A DNA stretch of 33,308 bases, from the sequence record SRR31156797_5759; one strand, written 5' to 3'. Below the pieces are notes generated by a model that saw only the letters and a list, made by a program, of their open reading frames with translations, was not told the DNA's origin and did no database searches. Made by a program: the position numbers and the translations under genes. Below are positions 1,991 to 26,509 of the stretch, piece by piece; the stretch's first letter is position 1, and the number at the start of each line of letters is the position of its first letter.

Positions 1991-2140
1991 ATGTCATTTT
2001 TAAAAGAGTTTTACCGTTTTTTAATGGTGAGAAAAAAATTTTGGATGGTACCTATTTTGTTAATGCTGGTACTTTTTGGAGGTCTAATTGTGCTGACCCA
2101 AGGTTCAGCAGTCGCCCCGTTTATTTATACTTTATTTTAA
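1991..2140 (+). CDS. 49-aa single-TM peptide, SxtK/DUF5989-like (absent from the ORF track)
   Basis: Manual translation MSFLKEFYRFLMVRKKFWMVPILLMLVLFGGLIVLTQGSAVAPFIYTLF*. AAGGA RBS at 1979-1983; fills the gap between the SxtJ-like gene and the carbamoyltransferase; RKK.W..P and SA.APFIYTLF are typical of the family. Confidence 0.88.
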   Translation: MSFLKEFYRFLMVRKKFWMVPILLMLVLFGGLIVLTQGSAVAPFIYTLF

Positions 2141-2159: not shown

Positions 2160-3995
2160 ATGACTGCAATTTTGGGAATATCGGCTTTTTACCATGACAG
2201 CGCAGCAGCCCTTATAATCAATGGGGAAATTATTGCTGCTGTACAAGAAGAGCGGTTTTCTCGAAAAAAACACGATGCCCGATTCCCATGTGATGCGATA
2301 AAATACGTCCTTTCCGAAGGCTGCTTAACATTGGGGCAAATCGATTTTGTTGTTTTTTATGATAAACCCTTTTTAAAATTTGAAAGATTGCTTGAAACAT
2401 ACGTGGCAACTGTTCCAAAAGGATTGAGATCCTTTTGTATGGCTATGCCGATCTGGCTTCGGGAAAAACTTTTTTTGAAGCATCAGCTTGTTAAAGAATT
2501 AGAACTCATTGATAAAAAATTTGATGTCAACTGCTTGAGATTCAGTGAACATCATTTTAGTCATGCCGCCAGTGCTTTCTATCCATCTCCATTCGAAGAC
2601 GCTCTTATTTTAACCCTTGACGGTGTCGGTGAATGGGCAACAACAACGGTTTCCATTGGAAAGGGATCTAAACTCAAGATTGTCAGGGAAATTAGATTCC
2701 CGCATTCACTAGGATTGCTTTATTCTGCATTCACTTATTACACAGGATTTCGGGTAAATAGCGGGGAATACAAACTTATGGGATTAGCGCCTTATGGGAA
2801 ACCAAAGTACGCAACCCTTATTTTAGATAAGCTTGTTGACCTAAAAGAGGACGGGTCTTTTTGGTTAGACCAATCGTATTTTAATTATGCCACTGGGCTT
2901 ACAATGACCAATAAAAAATTTTCCCGATTATTTGGTCAGTCTGTACGAAGGCCTGATTCAGATAGTTTAGAACAATTTCACATGGATATTGCTGCTTCTG
3001 TTCAGGCCGTGACAGAGAAGATAGTGCTAAAGATGGTTCGCTCCCTTTCTAAGGAGTTCGAGATCCCCAATCTTTGCATGGCGGGTGGTGTGGCGCTAAA
3101 CTGTGTTGCAAATGGAAAAATTTTAAACAAACAATATTTTCAGGACATCTGGATCCAACCGGCAGCGGGTGATGCCGGAGGGGCTATTGGCGCTGCTTTG
3201 GCGTTGTGGTTTGATGAATTGGAAAATACCCGCATTATTAAAAAACATGATTCAATGCGGGGGGCTTATCTTGGCCCTTCCTATGATAGAGAGTTTATTG
3301 AAAAAAGCTTTAGTTCAGCAGGGGCAAAATTTAAAATCCTTACCGATGAAGAGGTGCTGGAGCAAACAGCACAAGCCCTCAACCAAGGAAAAGCAATTGG
3401 CTGGTTTCAGGGGCGAATGGAATTTGGGCCCCGTGCACTTGGAGGGCGTTCCATTATAGGTGATCCTCGCTCAGAAACCATGCAGAAAATTCTTAATCTT
3501 AAGGTTAAGTATCGTGAAAGTTTTCGTCCCTTTGCCCCGTCTGTTCTGAGAGAAGATCTCTCAGATTGGTTTGAGCTTGATTATGATAGTCCGTATATGC
3601 TGTTGGTCGCAGGTGTTAAAGATAGCAAATGTTATCAGATGACTGCAGAGGAAAAGGCATTGTTTGGTGTTGATAAACTAAATATCAAAAGATCAGAGAT
3701 ACCGGCAGTGACACATGTGGATTATTCGGCACGTGTTCAGACCGTGCACAAGGAAACCAATCAAAAATATCATGCACTCATTAGTAGATTCAAAGAAAAG
3801 ACGGGCTGTCCGGTTATTGTGAATACCTCATTCAACGTACGCGGAGAGCCGATAGTCTGCACCCCTGAGGATGCATTCCGATGTTTCATGGGGACAGATA
3901 TTGATATGCTGGTGGTCGAAAATTTTGTTTTACAAAAAAATGAGCAAGATCAATCCTTGTCCTGTAGTTATAAAAATAAGTATGAGTTGGACTAA
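2160..3995 (+). CDS. O-carbamoyltransferase, NodU/CmcH/TobZ (SxtI-like) family
   Basis: ILGISAFYHDSAAAL, QEERFSR.KHD, EHH.SHAASAFY, DGVGE, GEYKLMGLAPYG, AGGVALNCVANG, QPAAGDAG, GRMEFGPRALG.RS, K.RE.FRPFAP, HVDYSARVQTV, NTSFNVRGEPIV. Confidence 0.95.
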   Translation: MTAILGISAFYHDSAAALIINGEIIAAVQEERFSRKKHDARFPCDAIKYVLSEGCLTLGQIDFVVFYDKPFLKFERLLETYVATVPKGLRSFCMAMPIWLREKLFLKHQLVKELELIDKKFDVNCLRFSEHHFSHAASAFYPSPFEDALILTLDGVGEWATTTVSIGKGSKLKIVREIRFPHSLGLLYSAFTYYTGFRVNSGEYKLMGLAPYGKPKYATLILDKLVDLKEDGSFWLDQSYFNYATGLTMTNKKFSRLFGQSVRRPDSDSLEQFHMDIAASVQAVTEKIVLKMVRSLSKEFEIPNLCMAGGVALNCVANGKILNKQYFQDIWIQPAAGDAGGAIGAALALWFDELENTRIIKKHDSMRGAYLGPSYDREFIEKSFSSAGAKFKILTDEEVLEQTAQALNQGKAIGWFQGRMEFGPRALGGRSIIGDPRSETMQKILNLKVKYRESFRPFAPSVLREDLSDWFELDYDSPYMLLVAGVKDSKCYQMTAEEKALFGVDKLNIKRSEIPAVTHVDYSARVQTVHKETNQKYHALISRFKEKTGCPVIVNTSFNVRGEPIVCTPEDAFRCFMGTDIDMLVVENFVLQKNEQDQSLSCSYKNKYELD

Positions 3996-5040: not shown

Positions 5041-6054
5041 ATGAAAAATAGTTCATTTAAATTCAGGACGTTTTTAATAGCAGAGATGGCGTGTTCACAT
5101 GAAGGTGAAATGCAATTAGCAAAGGAAATTATTGATGCCGCTGCAGAAGCCAAGGCCGACGCCATTCAGTTTCAAATATGGTCTGTCGAGCATATGATGG
5201 CTCCCCAAAGGAAAGAGTTCAGCCTTCTGAAAAAAATAGAGTTTTCTAAAAAAGAGTGGATACATCTAAGAGACTATACTCGGTTGAATTTCCCCGAGAT
5301 GAAACTTTATGTTTGCGTATATGAACATAATAGCATTGATTTTATAGATAGCCTTGGTGTGGATGGTTATAAACTAAATTCATCTGATCTTTCCAATCCG
5401 CTTGTATTAAGTAAAATTGCAAAAACAGGAAAACCAATAAATTTAAGCGTTGGAGCTTCAACTCTTGGTGAAATACAAGCTGCGGTTGAGCAAATTCAAA
5501 AGATTTCTAACTCTAAGATAACATTAATGTATGGGCATCAAAGTTTCCCAACAGAACCACGCAATGTCAATTTAAGTTATCTCCCTAAAATAAAAAATCT
5601 TTTTGACTTGCCTGTGGGATATCAAGATCATTGTGCTGGAGATAAGGACTCGGCTTTCTGGCTTCCCGCTGTCAGTATGGGAATGGGAGTTGAGGTACTT
5701 GAGAAGCATATTACCCACGATAGGAGTCAAAAAGGCATTGATCACGAATCCGCACTTAACCCCGATGAATTTATCCAATTTGTTCAAATGGTTCGTCTTA
5801 TTGACATTGCCAAAGGTTGCTCAACACCCAAAGCTTTTTCTGAGGATGAAAAAAAATATAGGTGTTTTCAGAAAAAGAGTATCGTTACAGTTCAAGATCT
5901 TAAAAAGGGGCATATCCTTGAAGAAGGAAATCTTACATTCATGAGGGCTGAAAAATTAGGATTGTCTCCTGATCAAATTGGTGAAATTCTTGGTAAGAAA
6001 CTTAAATTAAATATTGGTGCATATGAAATTTTGAATCAAGGAGATTTGCAATGA
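5041..6054 (+). CDS. Divergent N-acetylneuraminate synthase (NeuB/SpsE) family protein with C-terminal SAF domain
   Basis: IAE...SHEG, ADAIQFQ, YKLNSSDL, GYQDH, EKHIT, GIDH..AL.P.EF, C-terminal KKSIV...DLKKG SAF-like region. Confidence 0.85.
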   Translation: MKNSSFKFRTFLIAEMACSHEGEMQLAKEIIDAAAEAKADAIQFQIWSVEHMMAPQRKEFSLLKKIEFSKKEWIHLRDYTRLNFPEMKLYVCVYEHNSIDFIDSLGVDGYKLNSSDLSNPLVLSKIAKTGKPINLSVGASTLGEIQAAVEQIQKISNSKITLMYGHQSFPTEPRNVNLSYLPKIKNLFDLPVGYQDHCAGDKDSAFWLPAVSMGMGVEVLEKHITHDRSQKGIDHESALNPDEFIQFVQMVRLIDIAKGCSTPKAFSEDEKKYRCFQKKSIVTVQDLKKGHILEEGNLTFMRAEKLGLSPDQIGEILGKKLKLNIGAYEILNQGDLQ

Positions 6055-6803
6055 AGTCTGCGATATTAATTACTGCAAGGTTAAAGTCGACCCGCCTTCC
6101 TTTAAAGGTTATCAAACCTATTCATGGGCGTCCAATGATTCGACACATGCTGGATAGATTGAAACTTGCAAAAATACCGGAAAAAATTATCATTTGTACA
6201 TCACCTGTTGCACAAGATGACCCGTTGGAAGAAATAGCAATTCAAGAAGGTGTTGAATGCTTTCGGGGAGATCCAGAAGATGTCCTTTTGCGGCTGAAAG
6301 ATGCAGCTGAAAAGTATGGTGTTGATACAATAATTAACTGTACTGCGGATAATCCCTTTGTCGATCCAGATTATATAGATAAGCTTTACGAGTTCCACGT
6401 AAACAAAAAGAATGATTTTACAAAGATAAACGGTCTTCCTTTTGGTGTTTTTTCATACGCGATTTCATTTGATGCAATGGTTAAAGCTTGTGAAATAAAA
6501 AATGAAAATGATACTGAAGTTTGGCACGGTTATTTTATGGATACAGGTTTTTTTAAATGGAGCGCTCTTGAGGCCTCGGATCCGTCTGTTGTGTGGCCTG
6601 ATCTTCGCCTTACTGTTGATACACCGGAAGATTTTGCAATGGTCACAAAGATTTTTGATGAATTGTACAACCCCGGATGTGTTTTCCCTTTAACTGAGAT
6701 AGTTAAACTGTGCCGCAATAAACCTGATATTCCAGCGATGAATAGTGAAATAATTCAGAAAAAAGGTCTGCCGATTAAAATTAAGGAAGTAAAAAATGAC
6801 TGA
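6051..6803 (+). CDS. Cytidylyltransferase, SpsF/CMP-Kdo/CMP-NeuAc synthetase-like
   Basis: ITARLKSTRLPLK, DDPL, FRGDPEDVL.R, TADNPFVDP, LRLTVDTPEDF. ATGA overlap with the upstream gene. Confidence 0.87.
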   Translation: MKSAILITARLKSTRLPLKVIKPIHGRPMIRHMLDRLKLAKIPEKIIICTSPVAQDDPLEEIAIQEGVECFRGDPEDVLLRLKDAAEKYGVDTIINCTADNPFVDPDYIDKLYEFHVNKKNDFTKINGLPFGVFSYAISFDAMVKACEIKNENDTEVWHGYFMDTGFFKWSALEASDPSVVWPDLRLTVDTPEDFAMVTKIFDELYNPGCVFPLTEIVKLCRNKPDIPAMNSEIIQKKGLPIKIKEVKND

Positions 6804-7851
6804 TCACATCTCTATTTTTGGTAATAAAATAGGCCCTGGTAGGCCTGTTTTTATTATTGCCGAAATTGGGGTGAACCATAACGGTAATATTGATTTGGCA
6901 AAGAGGATGATTAGAAAAGCTATCCAGTGCGGTGCGGACTGTGTTAAGTTTCAAACGTTTAAAGCGGACCAAGTTGTGACAGAAAATGCACCCAAAGCTT
7001 ACTACCAGCTTCAGACAACCTCTCCAGAGGAATCTCAACTAAAAATGCTCAAAACCTTGGAGATGTCTTTTGACGATTTCGCTGAAATAATAGATTATTG
7101 CCATAAGCATAAAGTTTTGTTTATGTCTACACCCTATAATCAAGAGGATGTCGATTTATTGGACAGATTGGGTGTTGAAGCATTCAAATTAGCGTCGATC
7201 CATGCAGCAGAACCCTCATTTGCAAAATATGTAGCTCAAAAGGGGAAACCTTTAATCATGTCAACTGGAATGGCAACCTTATCAGAAGTTGATGAAGCTG
7301 TTTGGGCTATGCGGGAGACCGGGAATAACGATATCGCGCTTTTACAATGCACCACTAACTATCCATCACTGCATGAAGATGCGAATCTACTCTCCATGAA
7401 GACGATGGGAGATGCCTTTGATGTGATTGTGGGCTATTCTGACCATACTGTTGATGACATTGCCTGTATTGCTTCAGTTGCTTTGGGTGCAAGTATTATT
7501 GAAAAGCATTTTACCTTGGACAAGTCATTACCTGGGCCCGATCAATCCACATCAGCCAATCCTGAAGAGTTCAGTAGAATGGTCCGAAATGTACGTAAAG
7601 CAGAATTGGTACTCGGTTCAAAAATAAAAGGCCCTTGTAAAATCGAAAAAGAGAATGCTTTAGGGATGCGCCGTAGCATTGTTGCTGGAGTTGATATACC
7701 GAGGGGTAAGATTTTAGAGTCAAATATGTTGGCTTTTAAAAGACCGGCCTCAGGGATTCCGGCTAAATTTATTGATACAATATCAGGAAAAAAAGCTCAA
7801 AGAGACATTGAGGCTGGGATGATACTTAACTGGGCCGATATTGGGGATTAA
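6796..7851 (+). CDS. neuB: N-acetylneuraminate/nonulosonate synthase (NeuB family) with SAF domain
   Basis: FIIAEIGVNHNG, GADCVKFQTF, STPY, LQCTTNYP, GYSDHT, IEKHFTLD..LPGPD, RRSIV, KRPASGI. Confidence 0.93.
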   Translation: MTDHISIFGNKIGPGRPVFIIAEIGVNHNGNIDLAKRMIRKAIQCGADCVKFQTFKADQVVTENAPKAYYQLQTTSPEESQLKMLKTLEMSFDDFAEIIDYCHKHKVLFMSTPYNQEDVDLLDRLGVEAFKLASIHAAEPSFAKYVAQKGKPLIMSTGMATLSEVDEAVWAMRETGNNDIALLQCTTNYPSLHEDANLLSMKTMGDAFDVIVGYSDHTVDDIACIASVALGASIIEKHFTLDKSLPGPDQSTSANPEEFSRMVRNVRKAELVLGSKIKGPCKIEKENALGMRRSIVAGVDIPRGKILESNMLAFKRPASGIPAKFIDTISGKKAQRDIEAGMILNWADIGD

Positions 7852-8483
7852 TGGCACGTTATAAATCTTTGATCATTATTGGTGCTGGTGGCCATGCCCG
7901 GGTAATTGCCGATACCGTTCTTGCAATGGGAATATTTTTAAAAGGAATTATAGATATTGAATACCATGGGCAAAAAGAAAGGATCATGGGATATCCAGTG
8001 CTTGGAGGATTAGACTACCTTGGACAGTTTGGATCAAATGAACTGGCTTTAGCAATTGCCCTTGGAGATAATGAAAAACGGAACCATTATTATACCTCAT
8101 TCAAGGAAAAGGGCTTTTCTTTTCCACCCATTATCCATCCTACGGCAACAATATCAAAATTTTCAACCATAGGTGAAGGAACCTTTATTAATGCGGGTGT
8201 GATTATCAATTCTGGTGTGGAATTACATCCAAATTGTATAGTTAATACTGGTTCCATTCTTGATCATGAAGTATCTGTAGGTATGAATTGTCATATTGCT
8301 CCTGGGGTAAAGATTGGAGGAAGAGTTGTGATAGGGAAAAATTCTTTTATTGGTATGGGAGCAAGTATCATAGACAGTATAAAAATAGGTCAGTCTGTTG
8401 TCATTGGCGCTGGTAGTGTTATCATAGACAACATTGAATCGGGCTCGACCTATGCAGGTGTTCCCGGAAAAAGAATCAAATGA
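7851..8483 (+). CDS. NeuD/PglD-family sugar O/N-acetyltransferase
   Basis: IIGAGGHA, ALGDN..R, IIHPTA, hexapeptide repeats, NTGSILDHE, GAGSVI, GVPGK. Confidence 0.9.
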   Translation: MARYKSLIIIGAGGHARVIADTVLAMGIFLKGIIDIEYHGQKERIMGYPVLGGLDYLGQFGSNELALAIALGDNEKRNHYYTSFKEKGFSFPPIIHPTATISKFSTIGEGTFINAGVIINSGVELHPNCIVNTGSILDHEVSVGMNCHIAPGVKIGGRVVIGKNSFIGMGASIIDSIKIGQSVVIGAGSVIIDNIESGSTYAGVPGKRIK

Positions 8484-9339: not shown

Positions 9340-10809
9340 ATGAGCAACGATTTTATGAGCATGAAGGAAAACGTTCCGAATCTAACGTTACCAGACACCA
9401 GCCCGGTACGTGATGTCTTAAAGACAATTGATAGAGGCGGTTTAGGGGTTGCGTTGCTTGAAGATGCTGACACATGTTCTTTTCGAGGGTTGGTAACCGA
9501 TGGTGATGTGAGACGAGCATTGCTTCAAGGGATCGATTTGAATTCTCCGGCATCAGCCGTATCACATCCTGAAACGGTGACTGCGGGTATTGATACCCCA
9601 ATTGATGAAATAGCAAAAAAATTCACGGAAAAAGTGCGTCTTATCCCGCTTTTGAACAAACAAAACAGGGTCGTGGATATTTCTGTTTTTGATTATAAAA
9701 TGCATATTCCAGTGGCATCCCCCCTATTCTCTGGGAATGAATTAAAATATGTGAGTGAATGTATACTGACCGGATGGGTTTCCTCAACTGGGAAATATGT
9801 CTCCGAATTTGAACATGTATTTGCCAAATTTTGTAATACAAACTTTGCTGTTGCAACAAGTAGCGGTACAACGGCATTGCATTTGGCATTATTGGCCATA
9901 GGAGTTGGCCCTGGTGATGAGGTCATTGTTCCTTCGTTCACGTTTATTTCCACTGCCAATGCTGTTAGATTTGCCGGGGCTACTCCAGTTTTTGTTGATT
10001 GCGAAAGTGCAACATGGAATATTGATCCCTTGGGATTTAAAGATGCCATTACCGAGAAAACAAAAGCAGTTATTCCAGTTCATCTATATGGCCATCCTTC
10101 AGACATGGACCCAGTAATCGAGATTGCCCAAGAGAATAATATTAAAATAATAGAGGATGCTGCTGAAGCCCATGGGGCGTTATATAAAGGTAGGAAAGTA
10201 GGATCCCTTGGTGATATAGGGATTTTCAGTTTTTATGGAAATAAAACCATAACCACTGGTGAAGGTGGAATGGTAGTAACGGATGATCAATACTTGGTTG
10301 AAAAAATACGTATTCTCAGAGACCATGGAATGGATCCCAACAAAAGATATGAACACTCCGTTTTAGGTTATAATTATAGAATGACCAATATCCAAGCCGC
10401 ATTGGGAGTGGCACAAATGGAGCAAATTGACCAAATAATAGATCAGAAAAGAAAGAATGCCTCACTCTATAAAAAAGGACTGGAAACAATACCAGGGATA
10501 ACGCTTCCTCCTGAAAAAAAATGGGCAAAAAATATTTTTTGGTTGTATTCAATTTTAGTTGATGAGAATGAATTTGGAATGTCGGCATCTGAACTTGGGA
10601 ATCAGTTGTTAAAGATGAATATCGACACAAGGCCTTTGTTCCCACCTATTCACCACCAACCTATTTATGATACCAAACAATCCCTACCCGTCTGTGAAAT
10701 GCTATCTTCCAGAGGGCTAAGCTTGCCTTCTTCGGTTCGTTTGGCCAAAAATGAAATAGAATCTGTTGTGGTAGCTATTAAGTCGATATGTAAAGCAGGA
10801 GAGAACTAA
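9340..10809 (+). CDS. CBS-domain pair fused to a DegT-family (perosamine-synthase-like) PLP aminotransferase
   Basis: N-terminal ~120 aa with GLVTDGDVRRALL and LIPLLN...VVDI (CBS). Then HIPVASP, GWVSS.G, SSGTTALHLAL, VHLYGHP, EDAAEAHG, FSFYGNKTITTGEGG, GYNYRMTN, LSLPS. Confidence 0.88.
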   Translation: MSNDFMSMKENVPNLTLPDTSPVRDVLKTIDRGGLGVALLEDADTCSFRGLVTDGDVRRALLQGIDLNSPASAVSHPETVTAGIDTPIDEIAKKFTEKVRLIPLLNKQNRVVDISVFDYKMHIPVASPLFSGNELKYVSECILTGWVSSTGKYVSEFEHVFAKFCNTNFAVATSSGTTALHLALLAIGVGPGDEVIVPSFTFISTANAVRFAGATPVFVDCESATWNIDPLGFKDAITEKTKAVIPVHLYGHPSDMDPVIEIAQENNIKIIEDAAEAHGALYKGRKVGSLGDIGIFSFYGNKTITTGEGGMVVTDDQYLVEKIRILRDHGMDPNKRYEHSVLGYNYRMTNIQAALGVAQMEQIDQIIDQKRKNASLYKKGLETIPGITLPPEKKWAKNIFWLYSILVDENEFGMSASELGNQLLKMNIDTRPLFPPIHHQPIYDTKQSLPVCEMLSSRGLSLPSSVRLAKNEIESVVVAIKSICKAGEN

Positions 10810-10842: not shown

Positions 10843-12081
10843 ATGGAAGAATATCCTATCGTGAATAAAAGTTTTGTAGACATGAAGAAATTGCGTATTT
10901 CCAAAAATGCTATAAATGCCTTTTTTGTTATTTCAGGGTTACTACTTATCCACCAGTTTCTTTTCGAGGGTTGGCTTCCCGCAATTACCATCCTATTTTT
11001 TACTTTTATTGCATGCCTTTTATTGCAAAAATTTATTTTTGATAGAGATGTAATTCTGATTGTTTCTATGTTTAGCGTTTTTATATTATTTCTAATCATC
11101 CGAATTGAGCCTGTTTTTTATGATAACATCACTTATCTAAAATTGAAGCCAAAAGTAAATATAATAGTTTCTTCTCTATTATATTTTTCCACCTTTTTCT
11201 TTGCGTATATTTATGGGTATAAAAATAAGCATCTTTTTAAATTTTCAGGATACTTAAGCCTGTTTTACATGTGTGCATTCACAGTTCGAATTTTAAGTGA
11301 TTTCTTAACAATAAGGAATGGAAATAACTTATGGAGCGGTTTTCTTGTAATGATGACGACCCCCTTTATGTTGTTTGTTTTCAGAGAAAAACGTACTTAT
11401 GTACCATTCCTTTTTTTGTTTTTTATGGTTTTTACGTTTTCAATAAGTTCACGAGGAACTTTTCTAAGTTTAGCAGTGTTTTTTTTATCGTACTGCCTGT
11501 ATCCTTTTTTTGTAAAACATAAACGTCTGTATCAACTTATCTTCCCGTTTTTTATCCTATTTATTGGCGGTGGGATGTTGATTTATATTATTTCTTTTCA
11601 ATATCAATGGGGGCACACTCTCGATGAGTTAAGTCGTAGTGTTTTTGATAAATCGCTTTATTCTGGCCGCCATTATATGTGGAAGGAATTGTTAGAAATT
11701 ATAAACGAAAAACCCTTGGTGGGGCACGGTGCGTTCCAATTAAGTCAATATTTTGTCTCTCCTTCACATGATTGGAGAAACCTCAGCTCCCATAACTTGT
11801 ATTTAGAGATACTCGTGAGAGGCGGTGTTGTTGGTTTGTCTTTGTTATTAATCGTTTTTTACATGCTCTGGATAAAGCTTTATGATCATAATTGTTCTTT
11901 TTATGCCAGAGTAGGGGCCGCTTCATTGCTAGGCCATTTGTTCCATAATTTTTCAGTGCAATACTTATTAACTCAAAATATGGTCGGCAATACGCTAATT
12001 TGGTTTTTTTGGGGAGCATGTTGCGGGCATGTTAGTTCATATAAACTTCAGCAAAAAGTCAAAATGAGATCCTTCCTTTAA
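10843..12081 (+). CDS. O-antigen ligase/polymerase (Wzy_C/WaaL/O-OTase) family membrane protein
   Basis: About 10-12 hydrophobic segments; SSRGT; periplasmic-loop signature SGRHYMW.....I.EKPLVGHG...SHNLYLEILVRGGVVGL. Confidence 0.8.
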   Translation: MEEYPIVNKSFVDMKKLRISKNAINAFFVISGLLLIHQFLFEGWLPAITILFFTFIACLLLQKFIFDRDVILIVSMFSVFILFLIIRIEPVFYDNITYLKLKPKVNIIVSSLLYFSTFFFAYIYGYKNKHLFKFSGYLSLFYMCAFTVRILSDFLTIRNGNNLWSGFLVMMTTPFMLFVFREKRTYVPFLFLFFMVFTFSISSRGTFLSLAVFFLSYCLYPFFVKHKRLYQLIFPFFILFIGGGMLIYIISFQYQWGHTLDELSRSVFDKSLYSGRHYMWKELLEIINEKPLVGHGAFQLSQYFVSPSHDWRNLSSHNLYLEILVRGGVVGLSLLLIVFYMLWIKLYDHNCSFYARVGAASLLGHLFHNFSVQYLLTQNMVGNTLIWFFWGACCGHVSSYKLQQKVKMRSFL

Positions 12082-12230: not shown

Positions 12231-13379
12231 ATGAGTTCCTTTTCTGCGTTATCGAGTAAAGCTAAATTGCTGGTAATTGTTTTTTTCCTCGTGGTAGGTA
12301 TTTGTACCGTCGATATGTTTTACATTCTTTATAGATTTTACGATATAAATACAAATAAAGAACGAGTGCAGTTTTTTAATGAGTTAACTCATCATGAGTA
12401 TATCCCCGCTTCGTCATTTGTAAAGCAACCATCAAATGGTGATACTTACGAACCTGTACGCGTTGACATTAACAGTTTGGGGATAAGAGGGCCGGAACTC
12501 GGGGAAAAGAAAACATACCGGGTTTTAATGCTTGGAGATTCTTTTGTTCAGGCAGATGAAGTTCGATTTGAAGATACTTTCGGAGAACGGCTTAACAAGA
12601 AGTTCAAGGGGAAGATAGAATTTATTTCTCACGGCATTGGCAGTTGGTCTCCAACTACAGAATTGTCCTGGCTCTACCATAGGGGATTGCTTCTAAAACC
12701 TGATGAGGTTAATCTTTTCCTTTGTATCAATGATTTTGGAGGGGACACCAAATATAGGAACTTGGCGACATTCAATGGTGATGGGATTCCGGTTAGGTAT
12801 GACATAAGTAAAGAGGCAACTTCCATGAATCGGGTACTACGAGATAGCTCTATAATATACTCGGTTTTTACTTTTGCCAAATCCTTTTTTAAAAAGAAAC
12901 AAAAAGTGACAGGTGAAAGAAGAACTTTTTCTGATGATATTTTACTCTTTTGTACGAATGAGAAAGGAAAATGGCCTGATAATTATAGAGCATGGTATGG
13001 GAACACAATTAAATCACTTGTTGGTATGCACTCCCTTTTAAGCAAAAATCATATTGAATTGAATGTTTATTTAGTTCCCATGGGGTATTCTTGGACTGAT
13101 GAAATACTCCTAATCCGAAATCATCACGAAGAATATAAGAAGCTGAAAGATTGGGCTATATCCCAAAAGAAGCTTGAAGAAATATTGTATAACGACTTAA
13201 ACGAGTTAGGTATTAATTTCATAAAATTGGAATACCTTTTTGATAGCTTCAAAAAACGGTTCAAAAACCAGAAACTTTTTAATGGTTCTGATGGGCATTG
13301 GAATAAAAATGGGCATATGGTCCTTTCCCAGTTTTTTGAAGAATACTATAATACCAAGAATAGATTATCAGAAAGATAA
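12231..13379 (+). CDS. Membrane-anchored SGNH/GDSL-fold protein (AlgJ/AlgX/SxtL-like)
   Basis: N-terminal TM LLVIVFFLVVGIC, INSLGIRG, block I LGDSF, block II GIGSWS, block III CINDF, block V DGHWNKNGH. Confidence 0.82.
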   Translation: MSSFSALSSKAKLLVIVFFLVVGICTVDMFYILYRFYDINTNKERVQFFNELTHHEYIPASSFVKQPSNGDTYEPVRVDINSLGIRGPELGEKKTYRVLMLGDSFVQADEVRFEDTFGERLNKKFKGKIEFISHGIGSWSPTTELSWLYHRGLLLKPDEVNLFLCINDFGGDTKYRNLATFNGDGIPVRYDISKEATSMNRVLRDSSIIYSVFTFAKSFFKKKQKVTGERRTFSDDILLFCTNEKGKWPDNYRAWYGNTIKSLVGMHSLLSKNHIELNVYLVPMGYSWTDEILLIRNHHEEYKKLKDWAISQKKLEEILYNDLNELGINFIKLEYLFDSFKKRFKNQKLFNGSDGHWNKNGHMVLSQFFEEYYNTKNRLSER

Positions 13380-14426
13380 ATGATGAAATATATATTCTGT
13401 CAGTCGTATCTTCATCTTGCTGGAGGGCTTTCGATTATTGAAAAAAGTCTTCAGGAAAATAGAGAAGATTTTATAGTTGTTACCGCGAACAGGGATATTA
13501 TTACACTCATAACTCAACTATATGGGAGTAACAAAATCTATCAGATTCCTTCATACAGCATGTGTACGCCAATATCAAAAAGGTTTGCCTTATTTTTCCC
13601 TTTAATTTTATTCTGGAGGTTAAAATTTAAATTTTTGGCTCGCAGGATAACCGGAGACGAAATTTATTTTTTTATTGAAGGTGGGGCGTATATTATGCTG
13701 TCATTTATAAAAGAACTCAGCAAGAATAATTCGGTGGTGTATCATCGTTGCAATGAAGCCGTTTACACTCTAACTAAAGAAAATTTAAGGCAAAGGTTAA
13801 ACCGGTTCATTATTAAAAACTTTCATTCTGTAGATGTTGAATTTGTAGCATTAGGAAAATCTAGAGGTTTTCGGCCAACACGGAGATACTTTAAAGATAT
13901 ATCTGCTCATGAGAAAGAAATACCGGTGCAGTATCCTTTGATTTCTAATAGAATTTCACAATGCGGTATGGTAGGTGCAGATATATTACTATTGGGATCG
14001 AAAATGAGTATTGAAATTTTTTGTAAAATTGAAAAGAGTATTAAACTCTATAATTCCCTTTTAGTAAAATTTAATGAATACGATGTGAAGATAAAACATC
14101 ACCCAATGCATAACATGAGGTTGCCTATAGAAGAAAAGTATGAAGAAATACCGCCTTACTTTCCAGGGATGTTTATAATGGGATTATTCAGAATCGTTGT
14201 TGGCTATGCATCTGCTGCCCTATATGAAGCCGCAAATATTGGATGTGTTGCTATTTCTCTCTTGAACTACTTACCAGCGAATGATGAGAATGAAAAACAA
14301 GATAGAAGAATATATCTGGAGGCAAATCTTAATGAAGGGAAAATGATTTATTATCCGGAGAGTATGGGTGAAATATTGAAATTATGTAATACTCATCTGA
14401 TAGATAATTTTGAAACAAAAAACTGA
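13380..14426 (+). CDS. Hypothetical protein, possible nonulosonate (sialyl-type) glycosyltransferase
   Basis: N-terminal YIFCQSYLHL, central FFIEGG, C-terminal IKHHP and VVGYASAALY resemble the HP and S-S/T-A-L motifs of bacterial CMP-sialic acid transferases; nonulosonate genes are nearby. Confidence 0.45.
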   Translation: MMKYIFCQSYLHLAGGLSIIEKSLQENREDFIVVTANRDIITLITQLYGSNKIYQIPSYSMCTPISKRFALFFPLILFWRLKFKFLARRITGDEIYFFIEGGAYIMLSFIKELSKNNSVVYHRCNEAVYTLTKENLRQRLNRFIIKNFHSVDVEFVALGKSRGFRPTRRYFKDISAHEKEIPVQYPLISNRISQCGMVGADILLLGSKMSIEIFCKIEKSIKLYNSLLVKFNEYDVKIKHHPMHNMRLPIEEKYEEIPPYFPGMFIMGLFRIVVGYASAALYEAANIGCVAISLLNYLPANDENEKQDRRIYLEANLNEGKMIYYPESMGEILKLCNTHLIDNFETKN

Positions 14427-18908: not shown

Positions 18909-20123
18909 GTGAAATCAATGAATTTGTCAAAAAACATTGTAATAATTGAATTTTATGCTCATGAATCATATTTGAGGTCTCTTTTGGAAATATTCAGAAA
19001 TGATGATGTAACATTGATGGTTTCTGAATATTTCCATGAGAAATTTATCAGGGACCCTGAGTATTATAGTAAAGTAAAAATAATAGTTAAAAAGGATACT
19101 CAATCTCCCCAGTCCTTTTTCAAAAATAACCGTAAGATTATACAGATGGCGGATATCCTTTTTTTGAATACATTTTGTCGTGAGTATACGTACATTGAGG
19201 AGTATCTTAATAGAAAAAATGTGATCTTAACGTTGCATAATTTGAATGATTTTTTTGGTAATTATAATTTAACATATGGAAAATACCTTTCCTGTACCAT
19301 TGAGGAGAAGTCAAAAAACGCCTTGTTTTTATTTGGTCGCTATTTGATCCATTGTTTAAAAGGGGGTGTTTCAATAATAAGAGAAGCGAAGTATAAATAT
19401 AAAGCTGTAAAATTAGCATCAATTTTTTGTGTATACCACCAAAATATGGCTGGTAAAATAACAAAAGCCTATCCCAAGATTCAACAGATTATTTTACCCT
19501 TTAAATTACCTGATAAACATATTCCCCCTCCATCGCTTGAGCCTTGCCCCTTAGGACTGGCAATGATCGGAAATGTTGACCCGACAAGAAAGGATTACTC
19601 GGGTGTTATAGACGCTCTTGAAAAGGCAGAATTACAAGGACCGGTCAAGCTCTCTATTTTGGGCCGGTGCGAAAAAAGAGAGTTTGCCAAATTATTACAT
19701 TCAAAAATTAATGGGTTAAAAAATAAAAATCTTGAAGTCTGCTTTGAAGATCCCATAGAAAGGATACCTGACGATGGAATAAAGGCCAGGATGAGGAATA
19801 TTCATTATTTAGTCGCTGCCACAAAAATAGAGATAAAGGTTCGATTATCCTTAGAGAGGTATGGCGAGACAAAGGCCACCGGCTGTGATTTTGATGCCCT
19901 GTCATTTAATCGAATTGTTTTGAATAATGATAAATATGAACCCGTAAACTATCTGTCCGATTTTACACTTAGTTATTCAGATTATGATCATTTTGTAGAG
20001 TTAATAAATTCTTCTTTTTGTAACAATTTTATAAAAAAACAATATGACAGGATAGAGAATATTTGTGTGGATTCTCTTAAGAAATCTTTTAGAAAAGAGG
20101 TCTTTAAGAAAGTCAAGATATGA
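18909..20123 (+). CDS. Hypothetical protein, probable divergent GT-B glycosyltransferase
   Basis: 404-aa soluble ORF; TLHN in the N-half, MIGNVDPTRKDY (GT4-like G...RK), YGETKATG. Operon context. Confidence 0.5.
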   Translation: MKSMNLSKNIVIIEFYAHESYLRSLLEIFRNDDVTLMVSEYFHEKFIRDPEYYSKVKIIVKKDTQSPQSFFKNNRKIIQMADILFLNTFCREYTYIEEYLNRKNVILTLHNLNDFFGNYNLTYGKYLSCTIEEKSKNALFLFGRYLIHCLKGGVSIIREAKYKYKAVKLASIFCVYHQNMAGKITKAYPKIQQIILPFKLPDKHIPPPSLEPCPLGLAMIGNVDPTRKDYSGVIDALEKAELQGPVKLSILGRCEKREFAKLLHSKINGLKNKNLEVCFEDPIERIPDDGIKARMRNIHYLVAATKIEIKVRLSLERYGETKATGCDFDALSFNRIVLNNDKYEPVNYLSDFTLSYSDYDHFVELINSSFCNNFIKKQYDRIENICVDSLKKSFRKEVFKKVKI

Positions 20124-21082: not shown

Positions 21083-22468
21083 ATGCAGATTATTGAATAT
21101 AAGGCTTTTCGGTATTATCGCCAGGATAACGCTTTTTTAAGTGTAAAAGAAGTTACATATTCTCTTAAACGATTTTGGTGTTTGGTGGGAGGAGGGGGGG
21201 ATTGGAAAGGCTCTCCGGTTATAAATTTTTTATCAGTGTCTAAAAATTCAGTTCAGGAAATGCTTGATTTGTCGAACAACTCTCTTTCTTGGGTCCCTAT
21301 GAGTTTTGCCTTTCCTGGGGGGAACAATGTCTTTGATTGTGATAGGTATAAGTTACCATCAATTTGTAGGATAGCTAATGATAGTGAAATGCAATGTGAT
21401 GAAGTGGCTTTTTTCCCTTTAGATTTAATATCGGCAACCTTTTTTATGTTGTCCAGATATGAAGAGTATTGCCATGATGGTGAAACCGATATCCATGGCA
21501 GATTCCGACTTGAGGATAGTTTTGCCTATAAGCAAAATTTTCACCAGAGACCCATAATTGATGAATGGGCCTTAGCTGTGAGAAAATGGTTGGCTTTTTT
21601 ACATCCTCAATGGGAGCCAATAATACCTAATCATCAACCTTTTATAACTCACGATATTGATATTCCCATTAGATATTCATCGGTGAGATATATTTTAAGA
21701 GCCATTGGAGGGGAGTTAATACAAAGAAGTCGTAATCCCATAAAGGCATTGGGTGTTTTTATAGAAGGGGTTACCTCGCTTTTTAACGTTTATAAAGATC
21801 CGTATGTTCGTAAATTAAAAGAATTGCTATATCTGGAGCAGTTATATAAATATCACTCAGCGTGTTTTATTATGGCTTCGGAGCCCGGTAAGTTTGATAG
21901 AGGCTACCGTTGTGATGACCCCAAAGTAAAGGTTGTCCTGGAAATAATTGATGGTATGAAAGCAGAGTTAGGCTGGCACCCAGGGTATAGAACTTTTAAT
22001 AATGAAGAAATTTTTCAAACTGAAAAACACAAAATGGATGCAGTGCTCGAAATTGACAGATATGGCGGGCGCCAGCATTATTTGCGTTGGAAAGCTGGTG
22101 TTAGCTGGGAGACTTGGGAAAAGTACGGATTAATTTATGATTCAACATTAGGCTGGGCAAACTCTATTGGATTTAGATGCGGAACCTGCCATCCATATCC
22201 ATGTTTTTCGATTAAAGAACAAAGGACCCTATCTTTAATTGAACGGCCCTTGATTATTATGGATACAGCAGCGGTTCAAACTTCTGATACAATGGACGGG
22301 ATTGAAAAATCTATTATTGATGTTCTGCAAAGGGTTCGACTGGTAAACGGAGAGGCGGTAATTTTACTTCACAATAGTTTTCACAATAATTTTGTTGAAG
22401 AAATTATATATAAAACTCTTGGTATGTCTGAAATTCACTTAAGATACAAAAATACGAGGGTTATATGA
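21083..22468 (+). CDS. Polysaccharide deacetylase (NodB-like fold) domain protein
   Basis: D...ATFFMLSRYEE, D.HGRF, RPIIDEW, ITHDID, ELGWHPGY, GGRQHYLRW, YDSTLG, GFRCGTC.PY, PLIIMD, LLHN. Confidence 0.8.
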   Translation: MQIIEYKAFRYYRQDNAFLSVKEVTYSLKRFWCLVGGGGDWKGSPVINFLSVSKNSVQEMLDLSNNSLSWVPMSFAFPGGNNVFDCDRYKLPSICRIANDSEMQCDEVAFFPLDLISATFFMLSRYEEYCHDGETDIHGRFRLEDSFAYKQNFHQRPIIDEWALAVRKWLAFLHPQWEPIIPNHQPFITHDIDIPIRYSSVRYILRAIGGELIQRSRNPIKALGVFIEGVTSLFNVYKDPYVRKLKELLYLEQLYKYHSACFIMASEPGKFDRGYRCDDPKVKVVLEIIDGMKAELGWHPGYRTFNNEEIFQTEKHKMDAVLEIDRYGGRQHYLRWKAGVSWETWEKYGLIYDSTLGWANSIGFRCGTCHPYPCFSIKEQRTLSLIERPLIIMDTAAVQTSDTMDGIEKSIIDVLQRVRLVNGEAVILLHNSFHNNFVEEIIYKTLGMSEIHLRYKNTRVI

Positions 22469-23070
22469 TTGCTATAGCTGATTATGGATTAGGAAACTTG
22501 AAATCCATATATAATATGTTCAAAAAAGTTGGGGTTGAGTCAATTATCACCTCGGATGTTAGAGAAATTCAAAAAGCGAATAAATATCTGTTACCAGGTG
22601 TGGGAGCATTTGATCATGGAATACGCAATTTAAAGGGCTCACCTTTTTTTAATCAATTAAAGGAAGAGGTCCTGGTAAATCAAAAGCCTATCTTAGGTAT
22701 ATGCCTTGGTATGCAGTTGCTTACCTCTTCGAGTGAAGAGGGACAAGAAAGGGGTCTCGGATGGATTGAGGCAAAAACGGTGAAATTTGACATTGCAGAT
22801 AACGATTTTTCTATCCCGCATATGGGGTGGAATCAAGTGAACCCTGCACAACAAGACAAATTGTTCAGAAAACTTGATGATAACAGATTTTATTTTGTTC
22901 ATTCTTATCACGTTGTTTGTCGTGATGAAAAGGCTGTTTTAGCAACAGCAGACTATGGGAATAAATTTATATGTGGGATTCGTAAAGATAATATATTCGG
23001 GGTGCAGTTTCATCCCGAGAAAAGTCATAAGTTTGGAATGCGGTTGCTAAAAAATTTTGGAGAAATGTAA
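22465..23070 (+). CDS. hisH: HisH-like class I glutamine amidotransferase (WbuY-type glycan-locus paralogue)
   Basis: DYGLGNL.S, LPGVGAF, GICLGMQ (catalytic Cys), PHMGWN, FYFVHSY, QFHPEKS. Confidence 0.92.
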   Translation: MIAIADYGLGNLKSIYNMFKKVGVESIITSDVREIQKANKYLLPGVGAFDHGIRNLKGSPFFNQLKEEVLVNQKPILGICLGMQLLTSSSEEGQERGLGWIEAKTVKFDIADNDFSIPHMGWNQVNPAQQDKLFRKLDDNRFYFVHSYHVVCRDEKAVLATADYGNKFICGIRKDNIFGVQFHPEKSHKFGMRLLKNFGEM

Positions 23071-23831
23071 TGCTTCAAAAAAGAGTAATTCCATGCCTTC
23101 TCTTGCACAAAGGAGGGTTATATAAGACTCAATGCTTCAGAAAGCCAACATATATAGGCGATCCTATAAACGCTATTAAGATTTTCAATGATAAGGAAGT
23201 CGATGAGCTAATATTTTTAGATATAGATGCAACCGTAAAGAAAAAAGAACCTAACTATAGCTTAATTGAAAATATTGCTGGTGAGTGCTTTATGCCTCTT
23301 TGTTATGGAGGGGGCGTGAAAACAATAAAACAGATGAAACGAATATATGCTTTGGGGGTAGAGAAGATATCTCTAAGTTCTGCGGCTTTGGAGAACCCTC
23401 ATATTATTGCTGAGGCTGCAGCTGTTTTTGGAAAGCAAAGTGTCGTGGTAACCCTCGATGTTAAAAAAGATTTTTTCAGACGCAAAAAAATTTTTGTGAA
23501 CAACGGAAAAAAAAACACAAAACAGGATGTTTTAGAATTTGTGGGGCTCATACAGGAATTAGGAGCGGGAGAGCTTGTTATAAACTCTGCTGATAATGAT
23601 GGATTAATGACTGGTTATGACATAGAACTTTTGAAAGCCGTTAAAAAGCATGCAAAAGTTCCTGTTATTGCGTTAGGTGGTGCCGGTAATCTTGATCATA
23701 TAAAAGCCGTTTTTGACGTTGCTAAAGTAGATGCTGTAGCATGTGGTAGTATGTTTGTATATCAAGGGGCGTTAAAAGGGGTTTTGATTAACTATCCTCC
23801 ATACGGAAAAATGCAGGATTTTTTTAAATAA
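23070..23831 (+). CDS. hisF: HisF-like cyclase-fold protein (WbuZ/AglZ/HisF2 type)
   Basis: KRVIPCLLL, YIGDPINA.KIFNDKEVDEL, ECFMPL.YGGG, GAGEL, DG.M.GYD, ALGGAG. Lies in a glycan locus rather than a his operon. Confidence 0.9.
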   Translation: MLQKRVIPCLLLHKGGLYKTQCFRKPTYIGDPINAIKIFNDKEVDELIFLDIDATVKKKEPNYSLIENIAGECFMPLCYGGGVKTIKQMKRIYALGVEKISLSSAALENPHIIAEAAAVFGKQSVVVTLDVKKDFFRRKKIFVNNGKKNTKQDVLEFVGLIQELGAGELVINSADNDGLMTGYDIELLKAVKKHAKVPVIALGGAGNLDHIKAVFDVAKVDAVACGSMFVYQGALKGVLINYPPYGKMQDFFK

Positions 23832-23840
23832 AGGTAAATC

Positions 23841-24971
23841 GTGGACAACAAAGAAAACATAAAGGTTTGTAGGCGATGCGTTATGGACTCAACAATAAAG
23901 GTTATTGATTTTGATGAGGATGGCATTTGCAATTACTGTAAGGGATATCTTCAGAGATCATCATCAGAACTCTTAAAAACGCCGAAAAGGGGAGAAAAAC
24001 GCAATGACCTTATTAAAAAAATAAAAAGAGATGGAAAGGGCAAGAAATATGACTGTATCATCGGCGTTAGTGGAGGAGTTGATAGCAGTTATGTTGCTCA
24101 CCTCGTTAGAAAGTTTGAACTGAGACCATTGGCATTGCATTTAGATAACGGATGGAATAGTGAATTAGCTGTAAAAAATATAGAGCAGTTACTCGAAAAA
24201 TTAGATATCGACTTATATACACATGTTATAGATTGGGAAGAGTTTAAGGACTTGCAGAAGGCTTTTATAAGTTCATCCTTAGAGAATATAGAGATTGCGA
24301 GTGATCACGCAATTAATGCTCTTTTGCTAAAAACTGCAAATAAATATGGAATTAAATACATTTTAAACGGGAGTAATCTTGTAACAGAAGGGATTTTGGC
24401 TGTTCAAGGAGGGAAAGATGTTGACTATAGGCTTTTAAAGGACATACATCGGAAATTCGGAACGAAAAAACTAAAAACTTACCCATCAATAAGCATTTGG
24501 CACTTTGCTTACTTAGTGTTGGTTAAAAAAATAAAATTTATACCTTTTTTAAATTATGTCGATTACGACAAAGAATCTGCGATGGAGCTTCTGGAAGATA
24601 AATATTCTTGGAGAAGGTATGGGGGAAAACATTACGAGTCTATTTTTACAAGGTTTTTTCAAGGATATATACTACCGACGAAATTCAATTATGATAAGCG
24701 TAAATCGCATCTTTCCACAATGATAATGTCAAATCAGATCAGTAGAAAAGAGGCTTTCGAAGAATTAGCTAAAGATCCATATGAAAATGAAAGTTTGTTG
24801 TTAGAGGATTTGGAGTTTTTTCTAAAGAAACTTGAATATTCAAAAGAAGAATTTCAGCAAATAATGTCACAAAAGCCTGTTGAACCAACAGAGTATAAAT
24901 CCTATGAAAGAATGTTTGAAATTTTAAGTCCATTAGTATTTAAGGTAAAAGAGTATGCGAAGGGGAACTGA
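23841..24971 (+). CDS. N-acetyl sugar amidotransferase (WbpG/WbuX family)
   Basis: CRRCVMD...GICNYC, YDCIIGVSGGVDSS (PP-loop), H.DNGWNSELA..NI, YGGKHYES.FTRF.Q, DKRK.HLS. GTG start. Confidence 0.92.
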   Translation: MDNKENIKVCRRCVMDSTIKVIDFDEDGICNYCKGYLQRSSSELLKTPKRGEKRNDLIKKIKRDGKGKKYDCIIGVSGGVDSSYVAHLVRKFELRPLALHLDNGWNSELAVKNIEQLLEKLDIDLYTHVIDWEEFKDLQKAFISSSLENIEIASDHAINALLLKTANKYGIKYILNGSNLVTEGILAVQGGKDVDYRLLKDIHRKFGTKKLKTYPSISIWHFAYLVLVKKIKFIPFLNYVDYDKESAMELLEDKYSWRRYGGKHYESIFTRFFQGYILPTKFNYDKRKSHLSTMIMSNQISRKEAFEELAKDPYENESLLLEDLEFFLKKLEYSKEEFQQIMSQKPVEPTEYKSYERMFEILSPLVFKVKEYAKGN

Positions 24972-26099
24972 TTGAGTAATTGTAATTTACATATTTACCC
25001 TAGTGATATGCTTTTGGAGAGTCGAATATTTAAAGAGGCAAGCTCAATAATATATAACTTGGGCTTCGAGAAAGCCGTTTTGCTTGGTATTTGGGAAAAT
25101 GGTCTACCAAAAGAAGAACAATTGGAGAGAAATATAGAAATAAAAAGAGTTTATTTATTTGATGTTCAAAAGAGATCTATTTTATATTTATATTATTTTC
25201 TATATTCTTTTTTTTATATTCTATTTGTTAGGCCCCAAATGATTAATATCCACACACTGGAGTTTTTACCGTTATGTTTGATTGGCAAATTATTAAATTT
25301 AAAAGTAGTTTATGATACTCATGAGTTAGAAACGGAGAAATGCAATTTACATGGCTTCAGAAAAAAGATATCGAAAATTATAGAGCGTTTGTTTATAAAA
25401 AAAGTTGACTTGATATTTGTTGTTAGTGAAAATATTTCGAAGTGGTATGCCAATGAGTACAATATTCCCAAACCAAAAGTCGTTTTAAATGCACCTAAAC
25501 TATTCGCTCATGGAAAAAGAGATTTGTTCAGACAAAAATTAGGGATAAGGCCAGAATCAAGAATTGTTTTATACCAGGGAGGACTAGCAAAGGGAAGAGG
25601 AATTGAACTCTTAGTTGAAGCATTTAAAAAAAGAATAGAAAATAATTTGGTGGTAGTTTTTATGGGGGCTGGAGAATTAAGTGACGAAATCAAAGAAGCC
25701 TCTAATTTATATAGCAATATCTACTACTATGATGCTGTAAGTCCAGAGGTCGTTTTAAACTATACTTCTTCTGGTGATATCGGGATCTCTCTAATTGAAA
25801 ATGTCTGTTTGTCTTACTATTATTGCATGCCAAATAAGTTATTTGAGTATGCTATGGGTGGACTTCCGGTTGTTGTATCAAATATGAAGGAAATGAGACG
25901 GGGGGTTTTAGACTATAACATGGGAATTGTTGTAAAAAATAATACGGTAGAAGATTTAAATAATTCGTTGGATGAGCTTTTAACTTTGAATTTAGACGAA
26001 ATGAAAGAAAACGCAATAAAGTTTGCCCGGGATAATTGTTGGGAGATTCAAGAAGAAAAAATGCTTAAAAGTTATAGCTATCTATTTCCTTTTTTATAA
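24972..26099 (+). CDS. Glycosyltransferase family 4
   Basis: SRIFKEA, VYDTHEL, YQGGL..GRGIE, PNKLFEYAM.GLPVVVS. TTG start after AAGGGG. Confidence 0.88.
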   Translation: MSNCNLHIYPSDMLLESRIFKEASSIIYNLGFEKAVLLGIWENGLPKEEQLERNIEIKRVYLFDVQKRSILYLYYFLYSFFYILFVRPQMINIHTLEFLPLCLIGKLLNLKVVYDTHELETEKCNLHGFRKKISKIIERLFIKKVDLIFVVSENISKWYANEYNIPKPKVVLNAPKLFAHGKRDLFRQKLGIRPESRIVLYQGGLAKGRGIELLVEAFKKRIENNLVVVFMGAGELSDEIKEASNLYSNIYYYDAVSPEVVLNYTSSGDIGISLIENVCLSYYYCMPNKLFEYAMGGLPVVVSNMKEMRRGVLDYNMGIVVKNNTVEDLNNSLDELLTLNLDEMKENAIKFARDNCWEIQEEKMLKSYSYLFPFL

Positions 26100-26110
26100 A
26101 AGAGAGCATC

Positions 26111-26477
26111 TGATACTGTGAAATAATGGATACTTATTTAAGAGTAGAATTAATCATTCAGGAGGTGTTTCGATCAGCGAATTATCACCTGCAAATGCTG
26201 TGTCGATTCAGTCAGAGTTTAAATGCCTTCGGATAGAAAATAAAAAATGATCCCATAGATATAGGGCTCGAATTTTAATAAAACAGACCGACTCTTTTAG
26301 AATTATAAAATACCAGAAGACGCAAGAATAGATTATGTTTGATTACATCAAAGTTATTTATAATAATAAAAGGTGACATTCCTATCTGGGGAAACATCAG
26401 CCCAAAAATGTATGAAAAATTGTGGAATTTGATGAAGGTAGCATAGGAAAAGTGTCCATTTTCATTTGACCATATCA
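26111..26477 (+). mobile_element. Decayed, internally deleted IS3-family element (~367 bp) retaining both terminal inverted repeats
   Basis: Left end TGATACTGTGAAATAATGGATACTT (26111-26135); reverse complement of right end (26450-26477) TGATATGGTCAAATGAAAATGGACACTT; TG...CA termini. GGAGG at 26161. OrfA-like relic SEFKCLRIENKK* (26212-26250). OrfB C-terminal relic YKIPEDARID/MFDYIKVIYNNKR*HSYLG/NISPKMYEKLWNLMKVA* (26304-26446) with frameshifts and an internal stop. Confidence 0.82.
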
Positions 26478-26494
26478 AATTCAAAGCTTTTAAT
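26466..26494 (+). promoter_or_regulatory. Candidate sigma70-type hybrid promoter (-35 in the IS right end, -10 in flanking DNA)
   Basis: TTGACC (26466-26471), 17-nt spacer, TTTAAT (26489-26494), upstream of the ATG at 26510. Confidence 0.35.
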
Positions 26495-26509
26495 CTTTAA
26501 GGAAATAAT

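Follow-up and report, generated by a model that had tools for sequence, protein, structure and literature searches.

DltX and PatA carry their acyl-shuttle motif, FXYXXF, at the C-terminus, and an acetylated tyrosine has been demonstrated in PatA (both according to the available part of PMC12148441). In the D-alanylation of teichoic acids, the microprotein DltX works with the MBOAT DltB and the SGNH-like protein DltD, and the accessible text of PMC13653941 describes binding of the DltX tail to DltD. The MBOAT-SGNH pairs PatA-PatB and AlgI-AlgJ/AlgX likewise combine a terminal FxYxxF with a TM-anchored SGNH enzyme, the tail in PatA and AlgI being part of the MBOAT itself and the donor acyl-CoA. 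The class III carbamoyltransferases TobZ, GdmN, NovN and NodU act on soluble or cytoplasmic acceptors. Enzymes of this class convert carbamoyl phosphate and ATP to carbamoyl-AMP. Helix 1 (E85-E98) forms the wall of the GdmN acceptor pocket, His27 serves as the base, and activity requires a loop of the partner monomer and a conserved Tyr hydroxyl (PMC9633730, in the portion available). The cyanobacterial saxitoxin cluster contains a carbamoyltransferase gene together with genes for SxtJ, SxtK and a GDSL/SGNH protein (sxtI-sxtJ-sxtK-sxtL); J and K are of unknown function in the accessible parts of the reports on it (PMC2684587, PMC2679770, 10.64898/2026.06.11.731795, PMC12300590). SxtL has been proposed as a decarbamoylase (PMC2679770, available part), and an SxtI/J/K complex has been postulated in this literature, the accessible parts of which give no shuttle role.

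The same four gene types, CT, SxtJ, SxtK and GDSL/SGNH, occur in a stretch of 33,308 nucleotides from sequence record SRR31156797_5759, referred to here in its full length as the window. The window is a surface-glycan cluster with all genes on the plus strand: nonulosonic-acid, amidotransferase, glycosyltransferase and Wzy_C genes, together with ABC-transporter and initiating-transferase genes. It differs from the saxitoxin cluster in being a glycan locus, with matches to other toxin-pathway Pfam families in 0/30 proteins scanned; no MBOAT was found by Pfam among the 30 window proteins scanned. Between sxtJ (1576-1980), encoding a membrane protein of 134 aa (PF19588, 43.8 bits), and the gene for a 611-aa class III (TobZ/GdmN/NodU-type) O-carbamoyltransferase (2160-3995; PF02543 and PF16861; CT below), a reading of the sequence alone had placed an unlisted ORF of 49 codons at 1991-2140. 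This ORF is real. It runs from ATG to TAA, is preceded by a Shine-Dalgarno-like AAGGA (1979-1983) that overlaps the sxtJ stop codon and lies 7 nt 5′ of the start, and its product, the SxtK/DUF5989 microprotein K, matches PF19451 over residues 1-49 of 49 (88.5 bits vs. a cut-off of 27). Relatives of K numbered 3565 among 3572 candidates. A search of the ESM Atlas returned no usable K matches outside PF19451, a PDB sequence search with K gave no match, and a scan for promoters and terminators gave a result at chance level.

K consists of an amphipathic helix (residues 2-13, hydrophobic moment 0.59), the basic triplet R14-K15-K16, a hydrophobic helix (17-36, with a Kyte-Doolittle peak of 2.66 over residues 15-45), the linker QGSAVAP (37-43) and the tail FIYTLF. 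The tail and stop codon occupy 2120-2140, with the Tyr46 codon at 2126-2128. The triplet, helix, linker and tail are all where the sequence-only reading had put them, and the amphipathic helix was absent from it. The N-in orientation claimed for K is supported by the clustering of basic residues before W18 (a mean of 4.5 K/R before W18 vs. 0.1 after T36 in 78 sequences), and the C-terminus may lie on the outer face. An F-x-Y-x-x-F ending is found in 1 of the 901 stop-to-stop frames of at least 20 aa in the window, namely K, and in 156/23,571 frames from the collected loci. Nine of these 156 frames, 7 of them MBOATs, lack the K-type P-F/M-I/V-Y tail.

Alignment of DUF5989 tails bore out the motif, the Tyr at -4 from the stop being invariant and the terminal Phe nearly so. 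Both residues were present in 121/121 sequences (the best 121 of 3565 relatives) and in 80/80 GTDB loci, two sets that were each picked by score. In the Desulfobacterota sample, 41 match rows correspond to 40 K genes in 38/151 genomes; Tyr46 is present in 40/40 of these genes and the Phe-stop ending in 38/40, the two exceptions being a tandem paralogue that ends in Val and one frameshifted copy. The Acidobacteriota sample yielded 56 K matches in 48/121 genomes, and in all 50 of the 56 that were inspected, including 20 weaker ones, the residue at -4 is Tyr and the last residue is Phe. The Tyr was also present in 150/150 listed cluster representatives (of 5379), of which 118 stop at the motif. 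A further 30 continue into C-terminal extensions unrelated to one another and the tail is altered in 2; we read the extended and altered tails as probable sequence errors. The only invariant columns in an alignment of 78 K sequences are P21, P43 and Y46, and position 17 mixes F, Y and W freely. DUF5989 and SxtJ also occur in SAR11 and Sinorhizobium.

Three further observations concern K itself. One locus carries tandem K paralogues (L114, 6436-6852, minus strand), of which the second retains the Tyr and ends in Val. Longer K 'fusions' (57 matches) were rejected as real fusions: they are mostly single-contig records with the look of read-through or chimeric sequences. One apparent Tyr-to-Phe tail proved to be a non-K frame of a control locus.

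The likeness to DltX and to AlgI-type MBOAT tails that the sequence-only reading had pointed out stood in part. Our comparison sets were 12 MBOAT tails and 36 DltX-type ORFs taken from metagenomes (80 listed loci), PF12459 being confirmed for 8/8 of the DltX-type ORFs checked. In hhalign, K and DltX aligned in register over 36 columns with a probability of 67% (vs. 22% for MBOAT tails against DltX), and K and the MBOAT tails with one of 78-79%. When the hexapeptide was masked, these values collapsed to 13% against DltX and 5% against the MBOAT tails, compared to 6% for an unrelated TM segment. K therefore resembles DltX in motif, register, size and layout, a likeness that does not demonstrate homology. 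PF12459 matched 0/78 K members among the families listed (25 of 28), and K is not a DltX family member. Both proteins have about 49 aa, a basic N-terminus, one TM helix, a 7-residue linker, a terminal FIYxxF and an SGNH partner gene. K differs in being hydrophobic at -3/-2, where DltX has N-E, in its extra amphipathic N-terminal helix and in having no MBOAT; the donor enzyme of its system would be a soluble carbamoyltransferase with SxtJ. In contrast to PatA and AlgI, the K tail is on a separate microprotein and the group carried would be carbamoyl.

CT, which has Kae1-like and YrdC-like domains and lacks a signal or TM segment, shares fold and catalytic residues with TobZ, GdmN, NovN and NodU. 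Of its His base and Fe ligands, the residues checked, H12, H131, H135 and D154, are kept in 94/94 members of its clade. In the 80 GTDB K loci, J was found in 77 and CT in 76. CT scores are bimodal in the Desulfobacterota sample, and K occurs in 34/36 genomes with a CT of at least 263 bits (hand count); the two high-scoring-CT genomes without K have an assembly gap or contig end at the expected place. The K-linked CTs form one clade (SH-aLRT 99 in a quick tree of 43 rows), whereas J, K and SGNH are all missing from the K-less CT relatives in Desulfobacterota, as is the conserved amphipathic helix of the pocket. This clade-specific helix (CT residues 67-84, encoded at 2358-2411) aligns roughly to GdmN acceptor-pocket helix 1. 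Among K-linked CTs the acceptor pocket is 78% identical where the rest of the protein is 45-55% identical, and at 35-45% identity of the rest, pocket identity is 61% for K-linked CTs vs. 28% for K-less pairs (25 pairs each). Over the same 27 loci, mean identity is 0.66 for CT, 0.67 for K, 0.37 for J and 0.19 for SGNH. The conservation of K and the CT pocket, while the SGNHs diverge, is consistent with one unchanging acceptor for CT and final acceptors that vary.

Two candidate findings on CT were discarded. CT residues 67-108 are not an insertion absent elsewhere, since they align to GdmN pocket helix 1, and a CT found without J and K in one genome (G036) is no real evidence of their absence, because an assembly gap comes next. 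The K-less CTs are often located beside Kdo/WaaP-type kinases, glycosyltransferases or PMT_2 genes (L131-L150). In one genome (G078), J is about 120 kb away from K and CT, and in two others (G118 and G043; L154, L156) the contig that carries K is not the one with the CT-J pair.

Modelled together with iron, CT, J and K gave a complex score of 0.79 in three runs, compared to 0.01 for the best of 3 controls and 0.00 when CT was replaced. At least 97% of contacts agreed between runs, with a partner pLDDT of at least 79, K included. The score mark applied is reached by 51/78 solved complexes and 2/108 mismatched pairs, counts that are only approximate for a model with a ligand. The models support the binding of CT, J and K as a membrane complex. 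In this predicted complex, K contacts CT residues 71-108 and J residues 10-22, 66-100 and 132-134, the best-defined contacts being those of its N-terminal helix and TM segment to CT and J. K docks on the CT helix that aligns to GdmN helix 1, so that the pocket wall is predicted to face K and the membrane. No CT active-site residue is among the K contacts in the model, which thus does not place Tyr46 in the CT site.

The J segments that contact K would lie on the cytoplasmic side. Two loci encode short SxtJ proteins of 76-83 aa without the first two TM helices (L228, 7022-7249, and L244, 1501-1749, both on the minus strand). These variants retain no more than an amphipathic helix and a single hydrophobic segment flanked by basic residues, which we read as defining the J core. 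The tail had a pLDDT below 50 in a J-K read-through model. With CT and J contacts that are probably cytoplasmic and a short J core, the K tail may fold back on J into the inner leaflet and be structural. A tail folded in this way would have easier access to CT, with C-out a putative orientation of K.

As in the tyrosyl shuttles, K appears from its gene neighbourhoods to be accompanied by a membrane-anchored SGNH enzyme with catalytic Ser and His. In the window, an SGNH gene (12231-13379) directly follows a Wzy_C O-antigen ligase/polymerase gene (10843-12081, assigned by Pfam) and encodes a protein with a TM segment at residues 3-36, S104, N167 and D354-x-H356. It has no Pfam match and a weak SGNH/GDSL match in NCBIfam, and is 10 kb from K. 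We consider it the likely partner of K and CT because a 47%-identical relative directly follows the CT gene in Desulfospira joergensenii (L043).

SGNHs were found in 46/80 GTDB K loci (31/44 full-length loci), using a profile built from these 80 loci themselves, and MBOATs in 3/80. Of the 46 SGNHs, 44 lie no more than 700 nt from the cassette, and 38 share its orientation. In the separate Desulfobacterota sample, an SGNH lies no more than 3 kb from 19/29 K-linked CTs vs. 0/20 K-less CTs (Fisher p 2e-6, for loci that are phylogenetically non-independent, the K-linked CTs being one clade). Pfam confirmed an SGNH in 15/16 candidates of this sample, with ALGX hits among them, and identified one in 0/59 neighbours of K-less CTs (59 of 79 listed neighbours). 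Ser and His are kept in 77/77 aligned SGNHs (Gly-x-Ser, with a column identity of 10%), an N-terminal hydrophobic segment is present in 74/77 and the D-x-H dyad in 53/77. No nearby SGNH copy was seen in 34/80 loci, at 10/29 K-linked CTs and in 11/20 weaker Acidobacteriota loci; MBOATs were near 0/34 and 0/20 further K loci. K and SGNH also occur together without an adjacent CT in three loci (L054, L055, L215), the last of which (5582-7421) is a J-K-SGNH arrangement on a Planktothrix agardhii plasmid with no CT within 6 kb. In another locus (L113), what looked like a CT-SGNH fusion turned out to be two genes with a frameshift.

A model of the window SGNH (pLDDT 86) had CgnD as its closest solved fold in VIA-align (Z 21.1, rmsd 3.6, 244 aligned residues); the next fold had a Z of 15.0, and PatB a Z of 12.3. 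CgnD is reported to be a slow hydrolase, and its cluster includes a carbamoyltransferase (PMC10070186, accessible part).

We consider it probable that these components form an MBOAT-free tyrosyl-carbamate relay, in which a carbamoyl group would pass from CT to the K tyrosine, then to the SGNH serine and on to an extracytoplasmic acceptor. CT would make carbamoyl-AMP from carbamoyl phosphate and ATP, as is established for the family, and would carbamoylate the invariant Tyr46 of K. The K tail would move between the membrane faces, J taking the part of the MBOAT funnel by thinning the membrane, and would present the aryl carbamate to the serine of the membrane-anchored SGNH. Acting as a transferase, the SGNH would carbamoylate the periplasmic surface glycan of this locus, to judge from the genomic context. 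Serine hydrolases readily accept carbamoyl groups from aryl carbamates, but carbamoyl-serine is usually slow to turn over, a difficulty for the SGNH step. The idea of K as a shuttle, put forward in the sequence-only reading, thus gains from the SGNH acceptor enzyme and the predicted CT-J-K complex, but not from the position of Tyr46, which the model does not put in the CT site. The wider claim, that CT-SxtJ-SxtK-SGNH is a widespread MBOAT-free trans-membrane relay with variable SGNHs carbamoylating extracytoplasmic glycans or exported metabolites and J ferrying the tail, seems to us evenly balanced between true and false.

It is also conceivable, if rather unlikely in our judgement, that J and K only anchor and activate CT at the inner face, where CT would itself carbamoylate either a small molecule or a sugar linked to a lipid; the tail would then be structural and the SGNH a separate hydrolase (decarbamoylase or esterase). 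The prominence of the N-terminal helix and TM segment among the best-defined K contacts to CT and J, the location of Tyr46, the many K loci without a nearby SGNH and the hydrolytic activity of the nearest solved SGNH fold, CgnD, are all consistent with such an anchor, and both an SxtI/J/K complex and a hydrolytic SxtL have already been postulated in the available parts of the saxitoxin literature. An anchor would, however, leave unexplained why the exact shuttle motif stands at the C-terminus with a Tyr that is never replaced by Phe, why the CT pocket is constant across very different hosts when the SGNHs are not, and why K and SGNH are paired in L054, L055 and L215, where CT is not adjacent.

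An essential Tyr that is never carbamoylated, completing or gating the CT pocket from the membrane side or lining a J/K conduit through which a small carbamoylated carrier would pass, appears improbable. The docking of K on the CT pocket helix in the model would suit this role, as would the partner loop and Tyr hydroxyl that dimeric GdmN needs (PMC9633730, in the part available), but the tail residues do not touch the active-site residues in the model, and the free C-terminal position is kept in 38/40 and 50/50 genomic copies. We give very little credence to K shuttling acyl groups in general for an MBOAT, in the manner of DltX, with an incidental link to CT. MBOAT genes do lie near K in 3/80 loci, but these MBOATs bear an FxYxxF tail of their own, 0/34 and 0/20 further loci have one nearby, none is among the 30 window proteins scanned, CT is present in 76/80 loci, and the complex score falls to 0.00 once CT is replaced.

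Within a literature search that reached only a minority of subscription journals and did not extend to the work of Schultz et al. (2023) on the DltX mechanism, we found no papers on DUF5989 and no shuttle proposal for SxtK/DUF5989. The K family itself is a known one, and we found no description of a carbamoyl relay route in the literature. If the relay is correct, it would provide a function for DUF5989 and SxtJ, two families without a known one that occur in 38/151 Desulfobacterota and 48/121 Acidobacteriota genomes sampled. Tyrosyl-shuttle chemistry would then include carbamoyl as well as acyl groups, and a group could cross the membrane with neither an MBOAT nor an AT3 domain. The relay would also recast the SGNHs beside K cassettes, SxtL included, as transferases rather than hydrolases, and could account for the joint occurrence of sxtI, J, K and L. 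Lastly, the relay predicts O-carbamoylated surface glycans in many environmental bacteria.

The glycan genes of the window show several features of their own. Regions 5041-8483 and 22465-28330, taken together, contain a cytidylyltransferase gene with a NeuB paralogue on either side, as well as a HisH/HisF-like pair accompanied by two amidotransferase-like genes; we read the NeuB and amidotransferase genes as indicating a heavily decorated nonulosonic-acid glycan. The gene at 2-1531, whose 5′ end lies beyond the window edge, joins the C-terminal part of a left-handed beta-helix acetyltransferase in frame with a DegT aminotransferase, and the gene at 9340-10809 encodes a DegT aminotransferase fused with a CBS-domain region. 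Two ORFs of 348 and 404 aa (13380-14426 and 18909-20123) have no Pfam match.

SGNH, J, K and CT genes are also found together on pSymB of Sinorhizobium meliloti 1021, near 482-486 kb (L213, 6794-10996), where the CT gene may be SM_b20472. SM_b20472, called arcB2, is a hit in a symbiosis TnSeq study, according to the accessible part of the report (PMC7268258).
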